From NCBI GenBank assembly GCA_044371425.1, contig JBILTR010000001.1, positions 602,058 to 666,057 on the forward strand: 64,000 nucleotides of DNA, read 5' to 3'. Source of the DNA: Pirellulaceae bacterium. GTDB taxonomy: Bacteria > Planctomycetota > Planctomycetia > Pirellulales > Pirellulaceae. The position numbers and the translations under genes were made by a program. Shown here in pieces: positions 51,813 to 61,430 of this stretch. Under the pieces are notes generated by a model, which saw nothing but the letters and a program-made list of their open reading frames with translations, was not told the origin of the DNA and made no database searches. Each line of letters starts with the position of its first letter. The stretch's first letter is position 1.

Positions 51813-51939
51813 ACCCAAGGTGTGCAATAGGACAGCCCCGGGCAATGCCTTGGGATTGGTTTCATCTTTCATGCACAGCGCCCCGCACGTCGGCATGTGC
51901 ACACCCAAGGTGTGCTATGTGAAAGCCCGGGGCAACGCC
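51813..51939. repeat. Pair of ~37-bp direct repeats (acccaaggtgtgc.a.{13}agccc.gggcaa.gcc) 90 bp apart in the hsdM upstream region.
   Basis: R1 is 51813-51849 and R2 is 51903-51939. Each ends in a short palindrome. Confidence 0.6.
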
Positions 51940-52151
51940 CCGGGGAACGGCGACAGCCACCCCACCCCATCCTCACCATCCGCCCCGACGGGGCGAGACG
52001 ATACAATAACCAATGACGCAAAAAAAGCGTCGATTTCGGAGGCGTGAGGAGGGACGGTTGGCGAGCACAACCGCTTGGGAAGGTTCTGACGTATCTCGAT
52101 CCTATCGTCCTCTGAATCCCTAGGCTGCCAGAATACCGAGGAGACCATTCG

Positions 52152-53771
52152 TTGCACTGGATTGCACCCACCGAAAAAGATACGGCGGCCGCGTCGCTGG
52201 AAAAGCGACTTTGGGACGCGGCCGATCAGTTCCGCGCCAACTCGGGGCTCAAGGCCCAGGAATACTCTGGCCCTATTCTTGGACTGATTTTTCTCCGATT
52301 CGCCGAAGTGCGTTTTGCCGCCCAGCGCGCCAAACTGGAAAAAGCCGGAACTTCGTCCCGTCGAGGTAGCCGGGTGGATGAACCCGCTGCCTACCATGCC
52401 GATAACGTGCTGTATCTGGCTGCCGAGGCGCGCTTCGATCACCTGCTGACCTTGCCCGAGGCGGTCGACATCGGCGCCAAGGTCAACGCCGCGATGCGCG
52501 AGGTGGAAAAACACAATCCGCAACTGGCCGGCGTGCTACCCAAGACCTTCAATCTCTTCACCAGCACCCTGCTCAAGGAGCTGCTGAAAAAAATCTCCGA
52601 GATCCCGGCCACACTCGACTTCGATGCCTTCGGCAGGATCTACGAATATTTTCTGGGCGAGTTCGCGATGAGCGAGGGCCAGGGCGGTGGCGAGTTCTAT
52701 ACGCCCGCCAGCATCGTGCAGTTGCTGGCGCAGGTGATCGAGCCCTTCCATGGGCGCATTCTCGACCCCGCCTGTGGATCGGGGGGTATGTTCGTGCAAT
52801 CGGCGCGGTTCGTGGCCGAGCATCATAAGAACCCGGCTGCCGAACTCTCCATCTGTGGCGTCGAGAAGACCGACGAGACCGGCCGACTGGCGCGCCTGAA
52901 CCTCGCCGTGCACGGGCTGGAGGGGGACATCCGCCACGGTGGTAACGTGAACAGCTACTACGACGACCCGCACAATGCCACCGGCCAGTTCGATTTCGTG
53001 CTGGCCAATCCACCCTTCAATGTGAACGCGGTGGACAAGGAGCGGATCAAGGACATGGTCGGCACCGGTCGGCGTTTCCCCTTCGGACTGCCGCGCACCG
53101 ACAACGCCAACTACCTCTGGATCCAGCTCTTCTGCTCGGCGCTGAATGCCAAAGGCCGCGCTGGTTTCGTTATGGCCAACTCGGCCTCCGATGCGCGCAG
53201 CAGCGAGCAAGAGCTACGGCAGAAGCTGATCGAGGCGCAGGCGGTGGATGTCATGGTGGCCGTCGGTCCCAACATGTTCTACACCGTGACGCTCCCCTGC
53301 ACGCTGTGGTTCCTCGACCGGGGCAAGGCTAAGACGAACCGCGCCGAGACCGTGCTCTTTATCGATGCGCGTCATATCTACCGCCAAGTCGATCGCGCCC
53401 ACCGCGATTGGACACCGGCGCAGATCGGATTCATCGCCAACCTCGTGCGACTCTATCGCGGCGAAGCGCCTGACTTGACCGTGGGGGGCCAGGAGACCGA
53501 AGCCAAGCTGAAAGAAGTCTTTGGTAAGAAGCCGAAATATGCCGACATCCCGGGCCTCTGCAAGGCAGCGACGATCGAGCAGATCGAGTCGCAGGGTTGG
53601 TCGCTGAACCCCGGCCGCTATGTCGGCGTGGCTCCGGGCGAAGAGGTGAGCGACGAGGATTTTAAATCGCAGCTTCAATCGCTGAACGAGGAATTGGAAA
53701 CCCTCAACGCCCAAGCGCGGGAATTGGAAGCGACCATTGCCAAAAACGTAGCAGGGATTTTGGAGATATGA
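52152..53771 (+). CDS. hsdM: Type I restriction-modification system DNA methyltransferase subunit M.
   Basis: N6-adenine MTase motifs DPACGSGGM and LANPPFN; HsdM N-terminal domain LWDAADQFR. Confidence 0.9.
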
Positions 53772-54622
53772 AAACAGAATTGGTTCAGGCGTTAAACACC
53801 ACATTCGAAGGGCATGCTCAGCAAACAGAAAGCGGCGTTGAGTTCTGGCTCGCGCGGGATCTTCAGCACTTACTGGGCTATTCAAAATGGGACAATTTTC
53901 TGGGCGTGGTTGTAAAGGCAAAAACCGCCTGTGATGTCTCTGGGCACCCGGTGGGCGACCATTTTGCCGACGTCGGGAAAATGGTCGATCTGGGCTCGGG
54001 TAGCCAGCGGGAAATTGACGACATCATGTTGACTCGCTATGCCTGCTATCTGATTGCTCAGAACGGCGACCCGAGGAAACTGGAAATCGCCTTTGCGCAG
54101 ACCTACTTCGCCGTCCAGACTCGTCGAGCTGAACTGATTGAACAACGTTTGCTTGAGGCCGAGCGAGTTTCGGCTCGCAAAAAGCTCAGCGTTACTGAAA
54201 AGGAACTGTCGGATGTCATCTTCGAGCAAACCGGTGGCAATAATGACTTCGCGTTGATTCGCAGCAAAGGGGACCAGGCTCTCTTTGGAAAATCGACCCA
54301 GGCGATGAAAGCTCAATGGAAAGTCCCGGACAGTCGCCCTCTAGCCGACTTCGCCCCGACGATCATTTTGAAAGCCAAGGACTTTGCCACAGAGATTACG
54401 ATCTTCAATGCGCGCCAGCATGGAATGAGCAGCGAGTCGGCGATTTCTCGCGAGCATGTGACGAACAACCAGGCGGTCCGCAACACGCTGCTGGAACGTG
54501 GCATTCGGCCCGAGGCTCTGCCGGCAGCCGAGGATGTGAAGAAAGTCGAGCGACGTTTGGCCTCTGAGGAGAAAAAATCGCTGCAGAATCCTGAAGGCCT
54601 CACCGCGGAGGAACAGCAATGA
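53768..54622 (+). CDS. dinD: DinD-like (DNA-damage-inducible protein D, Bro-N domain) protein embedded in the type I R-M operon.
   Basis: [32 protein letters not shown] and [12 protein letters not shown] are DinD-like. The ATGA start overlaps the hsdM stop. Confidence 0.65.
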
Positions 54623-54639
54623 GCGAACTTATAAGATTT

Positions 54640-54697
54640 GCCCAAACGCGGGAATTGGAACAAACCATCGCCGCCAATGTGGCGGGGATTTCGGAGG
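54640..54697 (+). pseudogene. Relic duplicate of the 3' end of hsdM between dinD and hsdS.
   Basis: About 80% nt identity over 57 bp to 53709-53765. It would encode AQTRELEQTIAANVAGISEG, compared with the HsdM C-terminus [20 protein letters not shown]. Confidence 0.7.
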
Positions 54698-54698
54698 G

Positions 54699-55923
<1,225 letters not shown>

Positions 55924-55931
<8 letters not shown>

Positions 55932-57015
55932 AATCACCCCGCTGCCCGCCGACTACGCCCCGCTGCTGGCGGAGATCAAGGCCCGCGTGCGGCATGCGCA
56001 GACCCGCGCCGTGATGGCGGTCAATGCGGAGCTGATCCGCCTGTATGGGGAGATCGGTGCGCTGATCGACCAGCGCCAGCAACAGGAAGGCTGGGGAGCC
56101 AAGGTGATCGAGCGTCTGGCCCGCGACCTGCACAACGAGCTGCCCGAAGAAAAGGGCTTTTCCGAGCGCAACATCAAGCGGATGCTGGCCTTTTATCGGG
56201 CCTACCCGCACTTTGTGCCACAGGCTGTGGCACAAATGGGGGGCAAACCAGAAGTGCCGGAGGCCGTGGCACTTTTTCCGACCGATCTCTTGCTGGCGCT
56301 GCCCTGGGGGCATCACAGCGAGCTGCTCGCCAAGGTCAAGGATGCAGCCACCCGACAATGGTACATGCAGGCAGCGGTTCGGTTCGGGTGGAGCCGCAAC
56401 ATTCTGCTGATGCAGATCGAGACCTCGGCGCACCTGCGCCAGGGAAAGGCGACCACGAATTTTTCCGAACGCCTGCCGCCACCGGCATCGGACATGGCGC
56501 AGCAGTCGCTGAAAGACCCCTACATCTTCGACTTTCTTACCCTCGCCAACGGGTTTCATGAGCGGGAGCTGGAAACCGGGCTGGTGGCCCATCTGGAGAA
56601 GTTTCTGCTGGAGTTGGGCCAGGGCTTCGCCTTCGTGGGAAGACAGTATCACCTAGATCTCGGCGGGGATGACTTCTACATCGATCTGCTGTTCTATCAC
56701 CTGAAGCTGCGCTGCTTCGTGGTGATCGACCTCAAACGCGGGGACTTCAAACCCGAATACGCCGGCAAGATGAACTTCTACTGCAATGTGGTGGACGACC
56801 GACTGCGCCATGCGAGCGATGCGCAAACCATCGGACTGATTTTGTGTCAGCAACCCAATAGGGTTCTCGCCGAGTACGCGCTGCGCGGCATCGACAAACC
56901 CATCGGTGTGTCGACCTATGAACTGACTCGGGCACTGCCTACGGAACTGCAAACCAGCCTGCCCAGCATCGAGGAGCTCGAGCGGGCGCTGGCCGACCAT
57001 TCAGGAGACGAATAG
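55924..57015 (+). CDS. DUF1016 / YhcG-family PD-(D/E)xK nuclease-like protein, copy 1.
   Basis: The N-terminal NAELIRLYGEIGALI...GWGAKVIERLARDL is YhcG-like. C-terminal PD-(D/E)xK motif YIDLLFYHLKLRCFVVIDLKRGDFKPEYAGKMNFY. The start overlaps the hsdS stop by 8 bp. Confidence 0.8.
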
Positions 57016-57017
57016 CC

Positions 57018-57064
57018 ATGAGCCCGCACGCCTACACCGAAGACCAACTCGTTGAACAGCCCGC
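57018..57064 (+). pseudogene. Relic duplicate of the 5' end of hsdR.
   Basis: A 47/47-nt identical match to the hsdR start at 58212-58258 (atgagcccgcacgcctacaccgaagaccaactcgttgaacagcccgc). Confidence 0.8.
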
Positions 57065-57186
57065 CATCGGGTTGTGCTCCCACCGGGTGCCTTTGGGCAA
57101 GGGGCGCTTGCATCATTCGCGGCTTTCTCCAACCGACGGTTGGACTTGCCGGGCATTGGCCACTAGCAAGGCCAGGGAGGAACGCT

Positions 57187-58215
57187 ATGACTGATTATCT
57201 ACCTTTGCCTTCCGACTACAACCAGCTCCTTGCCGAGGTGAAAGATCGCATCCGTTCGGCCCAGTATGCTGCACTCAAAGCAGTCAATACCGAGCTTGTC
57301 GGACTGTATTGGGATCTAGGCCGCTTGATTGTGGAGAAACAGGAGCAATCGGGGTGGGGTAAATCCGTGGTTGAACGACTCTCTCAAGACTTGCGGAAGG
57401 AATTCCCCGGCGTGGCCGGTTTCTCGGTCCAGAATCTCTGGTATATGCGCCAATTCCATCTGGAATATCGGGAACATGAAAAACTCCAACCACTGGTTGG
57501 AGAAATCGCCTGGGCACACAACTTGGTCATCATGAGCAAGTGCAAAGACCCTCTCGAGCGGGAATTCTACCTGCGAATGACTCGCAAGTTCGGCTGGTCA
57601 AAAAACGTACTGATCCACCAAATCGCGAACCAGAGCTACGAGAAGTCCTTGCTGGGGCAGACCAATTTCGACCAGACCCTGACGCCCGCGCTCCGGTCAC
57701 AGGCCAAGCTGGCCGTGAAGGATGAATACACCTTCGATTTCCTGGAACTGGCCGAAGAACACAGTGAACGAGAGCTTGAGCGGGCTCTCATCGCCCGCGT
57801 TGAAGACTTCCTTCGGGCCATGGGTGGCTTGTTTGCCTTCATGGGAAGCCAGTATCGGCTTGAGGTCGACGGCCGGGAGTATTTCTTGGACCTACTCCTG
57901 TTCCATCGGCGATTGCGATCTCTGGTGGCCATCGAACTAAAGATTGGCGATTTTCAACCCGAGTTCGTTGGCAAGATGCAGTTCTATTTGACGGCGCTGG
58001 ATCGACAGGTACGGCAGGACGATGAGAACCCGTCCATTGGTATCATCCTATGCAAGGAGAAGAACCGCACCATCGTCGAGTATGCACTGCATGATGCCAA
58101 CAAGCCCATCGGCGTGGCGACTTACGAGATCACTCGGACGCTACCCAAGGAACTGAAGGAGCAATTGCCTCGGCCCGAGGAGATCGCGGCATTGCTCGAG
58201 GGGTTCGATCCATGA
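57187..58215 (+). CDS. DUF1016 / YhcG-family PD-(D/E)xK nuclease-like protein, copy 2. It is diverged from copy 1 and has visibly lower GC.
   Basis: NTELVGLYWDLGRLI...GWGKSVVERLSQDL and YFLDLLLFHRRLRSLVAIELKIGDFQPEFVGKMQFY. The TGA stop overlaps the hsdR ATG. Confidence 0.8.
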   Translation: MTDYLPLPSDYNQLLAEVKDRIRSAQYAALKAVNTELVGLYWDLGRLIVEKQEQSGWGKSVVERLSQDLRKEFPGVAGFSVQNLWYMRQFHLEYREHEKLQPLVGEIAWAHNLVIMSKCKDPLEREFYLRMTRKFGWSKNVLIHQIANQSYEKSLLGQTNFDQTLTPALRSQAKLAVKDEYTFDFLELAEEHSERELERALIARVEDFLRAMGGLFAFMGSQYRLEVDGREYFLDLLLFHRRLRSLVAIELKIGDFQPEFVGKMQFYLTALDRQVRQDDENPSIGIILCKEKNRTIVEYALHDANKPIGVATYEITRTLPKELKEQLPRPEEIAALLEGFDP

Positions 58216-61200
58216 GCCCGCACGCCTACACCGAAGACCAACTCGTTGAACAGCCCGCGATCGGACTCTTTGCTGCATTGGGCTGGCAAACGATTTCGGC
58301 TATGGAAGAAACCTTCGGCCCCGACGGTACGTTTGGCCGCGAGACCAAAGGGGAGGTGGTGCTGACCGATCGACTGCGGGCGGCACTCACCAAGCTCAAC
58401 CCTGGCCTGCCCGCCGAGGCGATCCAGACCGCTATCGACGAACTGGCCCGTGACCGCTCGGCCATGAGCCTGGAGGCCGCCAACCGCGAGGTGTACCGAC
58501 TACTCAAGGAGGGTATTCCGGTTTCCATCCCCGACCGCGAGCACGGCGGGCAGAAGACCGAGCGGCTGCGCGTGGTCGATTGGGAACACCCAGAACAGAA
58601 CGATTTTCTACTAGTCAGTCAGCTTAGCGTGGTCGGCAGCCTCTACACCTGCCGGCCTGATCTGGTCGGTTTTGTGAATGGCTTGCCTTGGGTGGTGATC
58701 GAACTGAAGAAGCCCGTCGTGCCGGCGCGCGCAGCGTTCGATGAGAACCTGACGCACTACAAGAAAGAGATCCCGCAGCTCTTCTGGTTCAACGCCCTGC
58801 TGATCGCCAGCAACGGCACCGACAGCCGCGTCGGGTCGCTGACTGCCGACTGGGAACGGTTCTTCGAGTGGAAGCGGATCGAGCGTGAGGACGAGCCGCG
58901 CCGCGTGTCGATGGAGGTGATGCTGCGCGGCACCTGCGACCCCAATCGGCTGCTCGACTTGGTAGAGAATTTTACGCTCTTCTCCGAGCACAAAGCGGGC
59001 CTGGTGAAGGTGCTGGGCCAGAACCACCAGTTCCTCGGCGTCAACAACGCGATCCGCTCCATGCTGGAAGCCCGCAAGCTGGGCCACGGGCGCGGCGGTG
59101 TGTTCTGGCAGACGCAGGGAAGCGGCAAGAGTTTTTCGATGGTGTTCTTCGCGCAGAAGGTGCTGCGCAAACTGACCGGCAACTGGACCTTCGTGGTGGT
59201 GACCGACCGGGTGGAACTGGATGAGCAGATCGCCAAGACCTTCAAGACCGTAGGTGCGGTGAGCGAAGCAGAGGGGGACCAGTGCCATGCCGCTAGCGGG
59301 GCGCACCTGCGCGAGTTGTTGCGAGGCAACCATCGCTACGTGTTCACGCTGGTGCACAAGTTCCAGACGCCGGAGATGCTCACCGATCGTTCGGATGTGA
59401 TCGTGCTGACCGACGAAGCGCATCGCAGCCAGTACGATACCCTGGCGCTGAACATGCGGGCGGCGCTGCCCAAGGCCCTATTCTTGGCCTTCACCGGTAC
59501 TCCACTGATCGCGGGCGAAGAGCGTACCAAGGAGGTTTTTGGCGACTATGTGTCGATCTATGACTTCCAGCAATCTGTTGAGGACGGCGCGACGGTGCCG
59601 CTGTTCTATGAGAACCGCACCCCCGAGTTGCAACTGGTCAACCCTGATCTCAATGACGACATTTATGACCTGATTGAGAACGCCAGTCTTGACGAACAGC
59701 AGGAGGCGAAGCTGGAGCAAGCACTGGGACGGCAATACCACCTGATTACGCGCGACGACCGGCTGGAGACGGTGGCTGCAGATATCGTCACGCATTTTCT
59801 AGGCCGGGGCTTCCTCGGCAAGGCGATGGTTGTTTCCATCGACAAGGCCACGGCGCTGCGGATGCACGACAAGGTGAAGAAACACTGGGCCGCCGAGACG
59901 GCGCGTGTGCAGAAGGAACTGAACCGCTACGACCTGCCAGATTTAGAAAAGGCAGCGCTGCGGCACCGACTGGAGGTGCTGACTACCACCGACATGGCGG
60001 TCATCGTCTCGCCGGGGCAGAACGAAATCGAGCAGATGAGGAAGCTAGGGATCGACATCGAGCCGCACCGTAGACGCATGAACGATTCTCAGCCCGGACT
60101 GGACGAGAAGTTCAAGGACACGAACGATCCACTGCGTCTGGTGTTCGTCTGTGCCATGTGGCTGACCGGTTTTGACGCCCCGAGCTGTTCGACGGTTTAC
60201 CTCGACAAGCCGATGCGCAATCACACGCTGATGCAGACGATCGCCCGCGCGAACCGCGTCTTCCCAGGCAAGCACAGTGGCGTGATTGTGGACTACGCCA
60301 ATGTGTTCGCCTCGTTGGAGAAAGCGCTGGCCATCTACGGCGCGGGCAAGGGTGGCACGAACCCGGTCAAGGACAAGGCCGAGTTGGTCGCAGCCCTGCG
60401 GGAGGCGATCGCTGAGGTTACCTCGTTCTGTGCCGGCCATGGCGTCGACCTTGCCGCGATGGAAACCCTTCCCGTGGCTGGGATGGAGCGACTGGCTGCG
60501 ATTGAGGACGCGATCGATTCGCTGATTGGTCCTGATGCGGTGCGACGGGAGTTTCTCGGTCACGAAAAATTCGTGAGCACGCTGTATCGCGCCGTCAAAC
60601 CCGATCCAGCAGCAGTTGAATTTTCGATGAGAGTGGCGGGGATTGTGACACTTGCTGGAGCGATCCGAGAAAGACTGAACCCCAACTCGCCCGATATCTC
60701 CACCATTTTGCAGCAGATTGGCGGTCTGCTGGACGATTCGATCACCGGCTTGACGATTCGTGAAGAGGGGCCACCCGCCATCGACCTTTCGAAAATCAAC
60801 TTCGAGGCGCTGGCCAATCGGTTCAAGGAATCGAAACACAAGAATACCGACCTTGAGGCATTGAAGACGGCCATCGCGGCAAGGCTGGAGAAGCTGGTTC
60901 GATTGAACCGAACCCGAGCCGACTTCGCCGAACGATTCGAATCGCTGATCGAGAGTTACAACAATGGCAGCCGCAACATCGAACAGCTCTTTGAGGAACT
61001 GCTCAAGCTGTCGAATAGCCTGGACAGCGAGCAGGAGCGTCACGTGCGCGAGAATCTCAGCGAAGAAGAGCTGGTGATCTTCGACATTCTGACGCGTCCC
61101 GCGCCGGAGTTGACGACCGCCGAACGCGACGAAGTAAAAAAGGTTGCCAGAGATCTACTCTCGCGTCTGAAGAGCTTGCTGGTGCTCAACTGGCGGCAGA

Positions 61201-61367
61201 AATCTGCCGCGCGATCGACTTTGAAATTGGCGATCGAAGACACGCTGGATACATTACCGGCTGCCTACGACCGGCCGTTGTTCGCGCAGAAATGTTCGGC
61301 GCTTTTCGAGCATGTTTATGAGAGCTACCCGGAACTGAATTCGGGAGTCTATGCTGGGCTGACCTGA
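58212..61367 (+). CDS. hsdR: Type I restriction enzyme endonuclease/helicase subunit R.
   Basis: Helicase motifs GSGKS and DEAH; FTGTP; 1051 aa; typical HsdR N-terminal start MSPHAYTEDQL. Confidence 0.9.
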   Translation: MSPHAYTEDQLVEQPAIGLFAALGWQTISAMEETFGPDGTFGRETKGEVVLTDRLRAALTKLNPGLPAEAIQTAIDELARDRSAMSLEAANREVYRLLKEGIPVSIPDREHGGQKTERLRVVDWEHPEQNDFLLVSQLSVVGSLYTCRPDLVGFVNGLPWVVIELKKPVVPARAAFDENLTHYKKEIPQLFWFNALLIASNGTDSRVGSLTADWERFFEWKRIEREDEPRRVSMEVMLRGTCDPNRLLDLVENFTLFSEHKAGLVKVLGQNHQFLGVNNAIRSMLEARKLGHGRGGVFWQTQGSGKSFSMVFFAQKVLRKLTGNWTFVVVTDRVELDEQIAKTFKTVGAVSEAEGDQCHAASGAHLRELLRGNHRYVFTLVHKFQTPEMLTDRSDVIVLTDEAHRSQYDTLALNMRAALPKALFLAFTGTPLIAGEERTKEVFGDYVSIYDFQQSVEDGATVPLFYENRTPELQLVNPDLNDDIYDLIENASLDEQQEAKLEQALGRQYHLITRDDRLETVAADIVTHFLGRGFLGKAMVVSIDKATALRMHDKVKKHWAAETARVQKELNRYDLPDLEKAALRHRLEVLTTTDMAVIVSPGQNEIEQMRKLGIDIEPHRRRMNDSQPGLDEKFKDTNDPLRLVFVCAMWLTGFDAPSCSTVYLDKPMRNHTLMQTIARANRVFPGKHSGVIVDYANVFASLEKALAIYGAGKGGTNPVKDKAELVAALREAIAEVTSFCAGHGVDLAAMETLPVAGMERLAAIEDAIDSLIGPDAVRREFLGHEKFVSTLYRAVKPDPAAVEFSMRVAGIVTLAGAIRERLNPNSPDISTILQQIGGLLDDSITGLTIREEGPPAIDLSKINFEALANRFKESKHKNTDLEALKTAIAARLEKLVRLNRTRADFAERFESLIESYNNGSRNIEQLFEELLKLSNSLDSEQERHVRENLSEEELVIFDILTRPAPELTTAERDEVKKVARDLLSRLKSLLVLNWRQKSAARSTLKLAIEDTLDTLPAAYDRPLFAQKCSALFEHVYESYPELNSGVYAGLT

Positions 61368-61430
61368 GCATGTTTTCTCAGGGCAACGCCCTGGGGTCGC
61401 TAGAGCTTTATAGGACAGTGAACGCCCGGT

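Follow-up and report, generated by a model that had tools for sequence, protein, structure and literature searches.

The 64,000-nucleotide stretch of DNA analysed here (the window; positions 602,058 to 666,057 of contig JBILTR010000001.1, from a Pirellulaceae bacterium) carries at positions 52152-61367 a type I restriction-modification (R-M) operon in which the core genes hsdM, hsdS and hsdR are accompanied by three further genes, one of the DinD family and two of the DUF1016 (YhcG) family, referred to below as cargo. A sequence-only reading had proposed the order hsdM-dinD-hsdS-DUF1016-DUF1016-hsdR, and this order is borne out by six co-oriented open reading frames (ORFs) on the + strand, all free of internal stops, on whose identities Pfam, NCBIfam and PADLOC are concordant. 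Here, we describe a comparative analysis of this locus. We present evidence that two of its junctions contain duplicated ends of hsd genes, that such relics recur among related hsd loci, and that they probably mark the insertion of candidate defence genes into a coupled operon.

Architecture of the operon and its cargo

The reading frames of the operon, including two short ones derived from hsd gene ends, are as follows.

52152-53771, + strand: hsdM, 539 aa, TTG start; type I methyltransferase subunit
53768-54622, + strand: DinD-family Bro-N gene, 284 aa; cargo of the slot between hsdM and hsdS
54619-54702, + strand: hsdM 3'-end relic, a 27-codon mini-ORF containing a copy of direct repeat D1
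54705-55931, + strand: hsdS, 408 aa; specificity subunit
55924-57015, + strand: DUF1016-1, 363 aa; YhcG-family PD-(D/E)xK nuclease
57018-57194, + strand: hsdR 5'-end relic ORF, 58 codons, of which the first 53 nt (~17 codons) copy the 5' end of hsdR
57187-58215, + strand: DUF1016-2, 342 aa; second YhcG-family nuclease
58212-61367, + strand: hsdR, 1051 aa; restriction/translocase subunit

The locus is a complete type I R-M operon and putatively functional. HsdM contains Pfam HsdM_N and N6_Mtase (1e-74) domains, matches PADLOC MTase_I (9e-236), and possesses the motifs DPACGSG at residue 205 and NPPF at residue 286. HsdS is full length (Pfam Methylase_S; PADLOC Specificity_I 3e-80, residues 78-405) and has the two target-recognition domains separated by conserved regions that define a type I specificity subunit. 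HsdR comprises Pfam HSDR_N, SWI2_SNF2, T1R_D3-like and T1RH-like_C domains, scores 478 bits against NCBIfam TIGR00348 and 6e-175 against PADLOC REase_I, and contains the motifs PDLVGF...IELK, GSGKS and DEAH.

The domain calls made for the cargo, Bro-N for the first gene and DUF1016/YhcG for the other two, hold up in hidden Markov model searches with the same three resources. The DinD-like protein matches NCBIfam NF008573 ('DNA damage-inducible protein D') over its full length (376.9 bits, cut-off 242; residues 1-277 on profile positions 1-286 of 288), Pfam Bro-N (2e-09, residues 21-112) and PADLOC PDC-S13 (3e-116). In E. coli, dinD is an SOS gene under LexA control, and DinD is a modulator of RecA that inhibits RecA filaments. 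The window protein is a full-length, equivalog-level match to E. coli DinD (PRK11525), whereas its gene is embedded in an operon and, with its ATG overlapping the hsdM stop, has no intergenic region of its own. A further PADLOC profile, PDLC03083 ('type I specificity subunit', 717 positions), matches residues 13-263 of the DinD-like protein (E 2e-48). Because of this match, DinD-HsdS fusions apparently exist, a hint that DinD-like proteins may be physically linked with the methylase core.

Both DUF1016 proteins contain the Pfam domains DUF1016_N and YhcG_C (127 and 218 bits in DUF1016-1, 164 and 212 bits in DUF1016-2; cut-offs about 33) and match PADLOC PDC-S02 (1e-144 and 1e-153, respectively); they are 42% identical to each other. 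The orthodox E-D-(E/D)xK motif of the YhcG family (defined in PMC1189080) is present in DUF1016-1 as ERELE 213 / IDLL 253 / IDLK 268 and in DUF1016-2 as ERELE 194 / LDLL 234 / IELK 249. Across 30 aligned homologues, E194, E198 and K252 (DUF1016-2 numbering) are invariant and D235 is nearly so; D235 and K252 align with D254 and K271 of DUF1016-1. Thus the PD-(D/E)xK triad, on which the sequence-only proposal of two nuclease-like proteins had been staked, is intact in both. The two-domain architecture and the motif are shared with E. coli YhcG (COG4804/PF06250), which differs in being encoded by a solitary gene for which no conserved neighbourhood was found (PMC1189080); the window copies are embedded in an operon.

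Homologues of DUF1016-2 that are 87-100% identical are common in metagenomes. Since the 120 matches listed are 336-342 aa long, nearly all exactly 342, and the JGI gene call agrees, the start of DUF1016-2 was placed at ATG 57187 and not at TTG 57052. An AlphaFold2 model of DUF1016-2 built from a 30-sequence alignment had a mean pLDDT of 56.6, below 50 in the nuclease domain, and Foldseek against the PDB returned nothing at E <= 0.001; a search of the PDB by sequence likewise found no relatives. Relaxed constraint on DUF1016-1 was considered and rejected: the protein deviates at 3 of 201 conserved columns (including W42G), but 32 of 120 homologues do so as often. DUF1016-1 is therefore no outlier at these columns, which give no evidence of decay in the window copy. 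A phage origin of DUF1016 was also rejected, as relatives occur in only 14 of 50,697 phage records; none of these reaches 60% identity, and most are from Wolbachia WO or are fragments without annotation. One member of the DUF1016-1 clade, P0231 (471 aa), combines Pfam DUF1016_N, N6_Mtase and YhcG_C; it is either genuinely fused to part of a methyltransferase or the product of a gene prediction running on through an hsd relic.

A Pirellulaceae contig, Ga0453752_0000001, of JGI metagenome 3300044621 matches the window at 100% identity. The genes that flank the operon include PSCyt1/PSCyt2/PSD1, DUF1501, GlnE, MsrB and a GAF-SpoIIE phosphatase, families that indicate a planctomycete host. No integrase family matched among the flanking genes scanned from position 41 kb to the window end. 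A consensus scan of the operon, uninformative for a planctomycete, found no internal + strand promoter and a number of terminator-like sites within shuffle expectation.

Duplicated hsd gene ends at the junctions

The three overlaps described in the sequence-only reading are all found in the sequence: the dinD ATG lies on the hsdM stop (ATGA), hsdS and DUF1016-1 overlap by 8 bp (ATGCCTGA), and the DUF1016-2 stop lies on the hsdR ATG (ATGA). Its broader statement that all junctions are tightly coupled stands for these three of the five junctions and falls for the remaining two, where gaps of 82 nt (dinD to hsdS) and 171 nt (DUF1016-1 to DUF1016-2) intervene. Both of these loose junctions contain duplicated ends of hsd genes.

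At the first loose junction, direct repeat D1 pairs the 3' end of hsdM (53709-53772) with 54640-54703, at 77% identity over 64 nt. The mini-ORF that contains this copy begins in an ATGA overlap with the dinD stop and runs to within 2 nt of the hsdS ATG; the GGAGG that precedes hsdS lies inside it. At the second, direct repeat D2 pairs the 5' end of hsdR, from its ATG (58210-58264), with 57016-57070, at 98% identity over 55 nt. Here the relic ORF starts 2 nt after the DUF1016-1 stop, its TGA overlaps the DUF1016-2 ATG (ATGACTGA), and it has been called as a gene by JGI (positions 7832-8008 of L081; L numbers denote loci in our comparisons). A lineage-specific spacer of 116 nt (57071-57186) separates the hsdR relic from DUF1016-2; outside its own lineage nothing matches it, nor does any Rfam family. 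The relic, the spacer and DUF1016-2 are identical across 11 independent assemblies from JGI, NCBI and ENA samples.

The spacer was examined as a candidate hsdS 3' end and rejected, as it does not align with the hsdS 3' ends that precede genes of the DUF1016-2 clade in L095. Two similar palindromes lie 334 nt apart, one in the spacer (57124-57147, TCCAACCGACGGTTGGA) and the other inside DUF1016-2 (57482-57505, CTCCAACCACTGGTTGGAG); the latter scores as terminator-like on the - strand.

The relics were placed in context with 80 loci obtained with an hsdR query, whose best segments are 72-99% identical in amino acid sequence and which are thus the closest relatives of one hsdR. They span Planctomycetota, Verrucomicrobiota, Pseudomonadota, Acidobacteriota, Chlorobiota, Gemmatimonadota, Spirochaetota and other phyla, and the occurrence of relatives this similar in so many phyla indicates that this hsd family is heavily exchanged between them. 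Slots were read by mapping the six window proteins onto the loci and measuring the gaps. The hsdS gene abuts hsdR in just 6 of about 62 loci; the remainder hold 0.9-9.7 kb of cargo between the two genes. Surveyed in this slot, as the sequence-only reading had proposed, DUF1016 proved to be the commonest occupant, present in about 20 of the 80 loci when fragments are counted. The ORFs assigned to cargo families between hsdS and hsdR were as follows.

DUF1016/PDC-S02: 15 ORFs
Fic/SoFic: 12 ORFs
HerA: 6 ORFs
Schlafen-AlbA_2: 6 ORFs
GmrSD: 5 ORFs
SIR2: 4 ORFs
AbiEii: 4 ORFs
DUF4268: 4 ORFs

Where filled, the slot between hsdM and hsdS holds DinD (8-9 loci), RhuM (3) or transposases (2). The transposases are an IS200-like Y1_Tnp in L045 (2970-3548) and an IS4/5 DDE enzyme in L069 (6625-7404). 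The arrangement in the window is an ordinary one, and stacked cargo is seen in other loci too: L011 reads hsdM-dinD-hsdS-DUF1016-hsdR and L091 reads hsdM-dinD-hsdS-Fic-Schlafen-DUF1016-hsdR. The simple order hsdM-hsdS-DUF1016-hsdR, with the same 8-bp overlap as in the window, is found in L095-L097.

Each locus was then searched with nt 1-300 of its own hsdR, with three internal 300-nt segments serving as controls. An upstream copy of the hsdR 5' end was present in 20 of 78 loci (35 matches), against 1 of 78 for each control segment. These relics start at the hsdR ATG, lie directly 3' of the preceding cargo gene and are 23-299 nt long, their breakpoints falling between +23 and +299 of hsdR with a loose cluster at +53 to +66; a single locus may hold several (three in L045, four in L072). 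They are usually mini-ORFs that stop at the start of the next gene: in 15 of 25 relics the relic frame ends between -12 and +10 nt from where an ORF of 100 aa or longer starts, as compared with 4 of 25 for each of the other two frames.

The other core genes have left relics as well. A copy of the locus's own hsdM 3' end follows cargo in 7 loci, and it follows dinD in the window, L004, L011, L022, L027 and L030. L025 and L072 have clear relics of the hsdS 3' end, and a match in L065, of just 16 nt, was disregarded as too short. In L012 and L025, the hsdR 5' relic runs directly into one of the hsdS 3' end (...LEALDHA*), which overlaps the ATG of the next cargo gene; such a fusion is the signature expected of unequal joining of two hsd loci. 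Taken together, relics are general in the hsd family examined and specific to gene ends. Alignment of the hsdM tails indicates that the window relic resembles the tail that abuts hsdS, as in L001, and that the tail ahead of dinD is a distinct type common to the window and L011; dinD therefore travels with its own upstream hsdM tail.

A conserved 'landing pad' at the hsdR 5' end was considered and rejected: synonymous-codon identity over codons 1-20 is 0.61, against a gene mean of 0.53 (79 loci), and several internal windows are equal to it. A separate observation concerns a locus from Verrucomicrobia (L072, 4460-11482) with 9.7 kb of cargo, in which the four hsdR 5' relics are all broken at about +30 and are each followed by the same short element (...GCACCCTCACCCAGCCTCTCC...GGGGAGAGG...); similar sequence follows relics in L044, L063 and L068. 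The scars of L072 may be recurrent targets of a REP- or MITE-like repeat, or be marked by it.

Sister genomes and the likely order of arrival

Two loci, L001 and L082, are syntenic with the window, with flanks of 93-97% DNA identity, and six shorter contigs (L085-L090) carry the same variant. In these genomes and in L084, the hsdR relic, the 116-nt spacer and DUF1016-2 are 99-100% identical to the window, dinD is missing, and the hsdS target-recognition domains differ. The nuclease domain of DUF1016-1 has been lost in 8 of 10 sister places among the matches listed. In these, 378 nt are missing between imperfect repeats (ELETGL/ELQTSL) and a 1-nt frameshift is present; the remnant is a 297-codon ORF encoding only the N-terminal domain, which reads through the relic and stops on the DUF1016-2 ATG. 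In L005, both DUF1016 genes are degraded to remnants. The two DUF1016 paralogues are not a functional pair, as the sisters keep DUF1016-2 nearly unchanged and only the N-terminal domain of DUF1016-1. The tandem nucleases are thus a by-product of serial insertion and no obligate pair.

The hsdS genes of the sister contigs encode 392-421 aa. The central block of the window hsdS (55084-55300) and its 3' end (55842-55931) are 97-99% identical to L001, and 90-99% identical across L001, L005 and L011, whereas both target-recognition domains are unrelated between the window and these three loci. This change of specificity is ordinary domain swapping within one population.

Composition adds to this picture. 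The G+C content of third codon positions (GC3) is host-like in hsdM (0.765) and DUF1016-1 (0.769) and is 0.76 in hsdR; it is lower in dinD (0.621), hsdS (0.626) and DUF1016-2 (0.668). The difference in GC3, and the hsdR 5' copy that flanks DUF1016-2 at 98% identity, indicate that the two DUF1016 genes arrived at different times. A likely sequence of events would begin with an ancestral hsdM-hsdS-DUF1016-1-hsdR operon, to which DUF1016-2 was likely added with duplication of the hsdR 5' end; DUF1016-1 then likely decayed in most of the population, and the variant in the window likely imported dinD together with a new hsdS.

In L084 (1-11160), the module of hsdS, truncated DUF1016-1, relic, DUF1016-2 and hsdR is 93-99% identical and is followed by other genes, a Na+/H+ antiporter and ApbA replacing the GAF-SpoIIE gene. 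Given this different context, either the stacked module moved or its neighbourhood was rearranged.

Probable insertion and proposed role of the cargo

The reading that integrates these features takes the junctions of the type I operon as landing slots, into which cargo with independent defence roles has been recombined with the formation of scars; we consider this reading probable, if well short of assured. Incoming DNA from another hsd locus, bearing different cargo, would be joined by one crossover in homologous hsd sequence and by a second, illegitimate join inside the end of the neighbouring hsd gene. With one homologous and one illegitimate join, cargo would be added and not swapped, and the old junction, including its ribosome-binding site and start/stop context, would be retained as a scar. 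The insertions of dinD and DUF1016-2 each left such a duplicated hsd end at the junction used. Since the scar ORFs span the distance from the preceding stop to the next start, we infer that the eight reading frames form one translationally coupled unit.

The cargo genes themselves would encode independent second-line defence factors and not subunits of the restriction enzyme. DUF1016 could be a Mg2+-dependent DNA endonuclease whose helical N-terminal domain might sense or bind a target missed by restriction, and the DinD-like protein could bind DNA through Bro-N and act on intermediates of recombination or restriction. That DUF1016 is an autonomous factor is suggested by the slot it shares with autonomous systems and by its occurrence outside hsd loci. 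Older cassettes would decay once a newer one was in place. We also propose, tentatively and with some lean towards doubt, that such operons are integrase-free cassette arrays, in which insertion duplicates gene ends and the scar mini-ORFs are selected as a ribosome relay that keeps hsdS and hsdR expressed.

Several points weigh against the landing-slot reading and its extension. The 80 loci are the nearest relatives of a single hsdR and no random sample of type I systems; most are metagenome bins, although the structure of the window itself recurs in the 11 independent assemblies. The spacer next to DUF1016-2 has no outside match and is not a recognisable hsdS 3' end, so that it points to no donor junction for the DUF1016-2 insertion. 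The activity and expression of the cargo are predictions from sequence; in the only published test found, one PDC-S02 representative, assayed in E. coli B with T4, T5 and T7, was absent from the systems listed as protective (10.1101/2024.09.26.614923). Finally, the coupling of the mini-ORFs could in part be a passive outcome of joining two coding ends, and not of selection.

The sequence-only reading had compared the cargo with the anticodon nucleases PrrC and RloC, and a guardian role of this kind can be envisaged, in which the DUF1016 proteins, and perhaps the DinD-like protein, would be held latent on the type I complex and released as abortive-infection effectors once a phage anti-restriction protein has inactivated the enzyme. 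The cargo does occupy the slot cited for PrrC/RloC, on the same strand inside the hsd locus, and PrrC is almost exclusively embedded in type I loci; translational coupling would fix the stoichiometry with the Hsd subunits, and the apparent existence of DinD-HsdS fusions would also fit. However, the window cargo has neither an ABC-ATPase nor an anticodon-nuclease domain, its Pfam domains being only DUF1016_N and YhcG_C, with the PD-(D/E)xK DNA-nuclease fold, or Bro-N. Two DUF1016 clades only 42% identical lie beside the same hsdR family, which argues against a tailored interface, and DUF1016 is also found beside type IIG enzymes (PMC9881135), in Wolbachia WO prophage regions and alone in E. coli. 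Moreover, the sisters lost the nuclease domain of DUF1016-1 with their hsd genes unchanged. We regard a guardian role as unlikely. Of the earlier proposal of auxiliary defence, the general part is supported by the slot companions (SoFic, GmrSD, SIR2/HerA, AbiEii and Schlafen-type proteins); its PrrC-like link to restriction found no supporting evidence, and the PDC-S02 test mentioned above was negative.

Unlikely to a similar degree is a role for the DinD-like and DUF1016 proteins as accessory parts of the restriction enzyme, modulating it, for instance, through restriction alleviation after DNA damage, processing of DNA on which translocation has stalled, or provision of an extra DNA-binding module. 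The role of E. coli DinD in modulating RecA would be in keeping with this, as would the slot specificity of the cargo, DinD/RhuM being found only after hsdM and nucleases only after hsdS. The six loci (of about 62) without cargo between hsdS and hsdR, the absence of dinD from most loci, and the turnover and decay of cargo among near-identical genomes speak against such a role; the slot is, furthermore, common to the clearly autonomous GmrSD, AbiE, SoFic and SIR2-HerA.

DUF1016 might instead be a selfish cassette of no benefit to the host, a free-standing homing-type endonuclease that would cleave hsd junctions lacking cargo and be copied into them by repair. Its rank as the commonest occupant of the slot and the loose cluster of breakpoints would agree with this; yet relics likewise flank non-nuclease cargo (Fic, Schlafen-type), breakpoints are spread over +23 to +299, homing normally proceeds without duplication, and DUF1016 is also found in non-hsd contexts, so that we hold this explanation to be highly improbable. 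That strain variants were stitched into a tandem DUF1016 pair and relics during metagenome assembly is scarcely credible, for although metagenome assemblies supplied the window and most of the loci compared with it, the relic, spacer and DUF1016-2 are identical in 11 assemblies, the k141 contig names of many of these imply a k-mer longer than the 55-nt repeat, and all reading frames are intact.

The landing-slot reading is in line with what is known of related loci. Co-occurrence of DUF1016 with type I R-M genes was described in 2005 (PMC1189080) and 2012 (PMC3424549), and DUF1016 and dinD/RhuM were listed between hsd core genes in 2023 (PMC9881135). PDC-S02 and PDC-S13 are PADLOC candidates defined by their embedding in type I, BREX or DISARM loci, an approach termed 'guilt-by-embedding' (Payne et al. 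2024 preprint; 10.1101/2024.01.29.577857). Both cargo families of the window match these models (1e-116 to 1e-153); the window differs in stacking three cargo genes in two slots and in its recombination scars. The text of the preprint does not contain the words 'recombination', 'operon' or 'hotspot', and how embedding happens is not addressed there. PrrC is the classic embedded system, and two further modules embedded in type I operons act on their own and complement the host operon: the GmrSD-like TgvAB of Vibrio cholerae VPI-2 (PMC11411939) and DarTG2, between hsdS and hsdR in EPEC (PMC12255303). GmrSD-type cargo occupies the same slot in the related loci (the five ORFs listed above); TgvAB and DarTG2 belong to other protein families than the window cargo and have been validated experimentally, whereas a defence role of the window cargo is putative.

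A second parallel is with integron arrays, which likewise consist of promoter-less, co-oriented cassettes in series beside a fixed gene, the older ones decaying. The locus has neither an integrase nor attC, and its separators are duplicates of hsd gene ends, of a variable length of 23-299 nt across the family; this points to homologous plus illegitimate recombination and away from a site-specific mechanism. No description of hsd-end relics, cassette stacking or relay ORFs was found in the papers searched. These features may be new, though they come from one hsd family and from metagenome-derived loci.

By itself the locus adds little, being another type I operon with catalogued candidate defence genes. 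Its value lies in providing a population-resolved example of how genes become embedded in a defence operon without breaking it, since near-identical genomes capture dinD insertion and DUF1016-1 decay each in its earlier and later state. As a sequence signature, the duplicated hsd ends can be looked for in whatever genome is at hand. If general, this signature would explain why embedded genes reliably mark defence function, would allow cassette arrivals to be ordered in time, and would suggest how gene insertions into coupled operons might be designed. Additionally, DUF1016 occurs naturally here both with and without its nuclease domain, which would be useful for probing PDC-S02 proteins.

A last feature lies outside the reading frames. 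The 64 kb contain exactly three copies of a G+C hairpin motif, CNGGGCAAYGCCYNGGG, where 0.11 would be expected, and the three bracket the whole hsd operon.

51838-51854 and 51928-51944, + strand: two copies of the motif, inside a 90-nt tandem repeat upstream of hsdM
61379-61395, + strand: third copy, 12 nt after the hsdR stop

The motif may act as a terminator or as a regulatory hairpin, or be a repeat that marks an island boundary.

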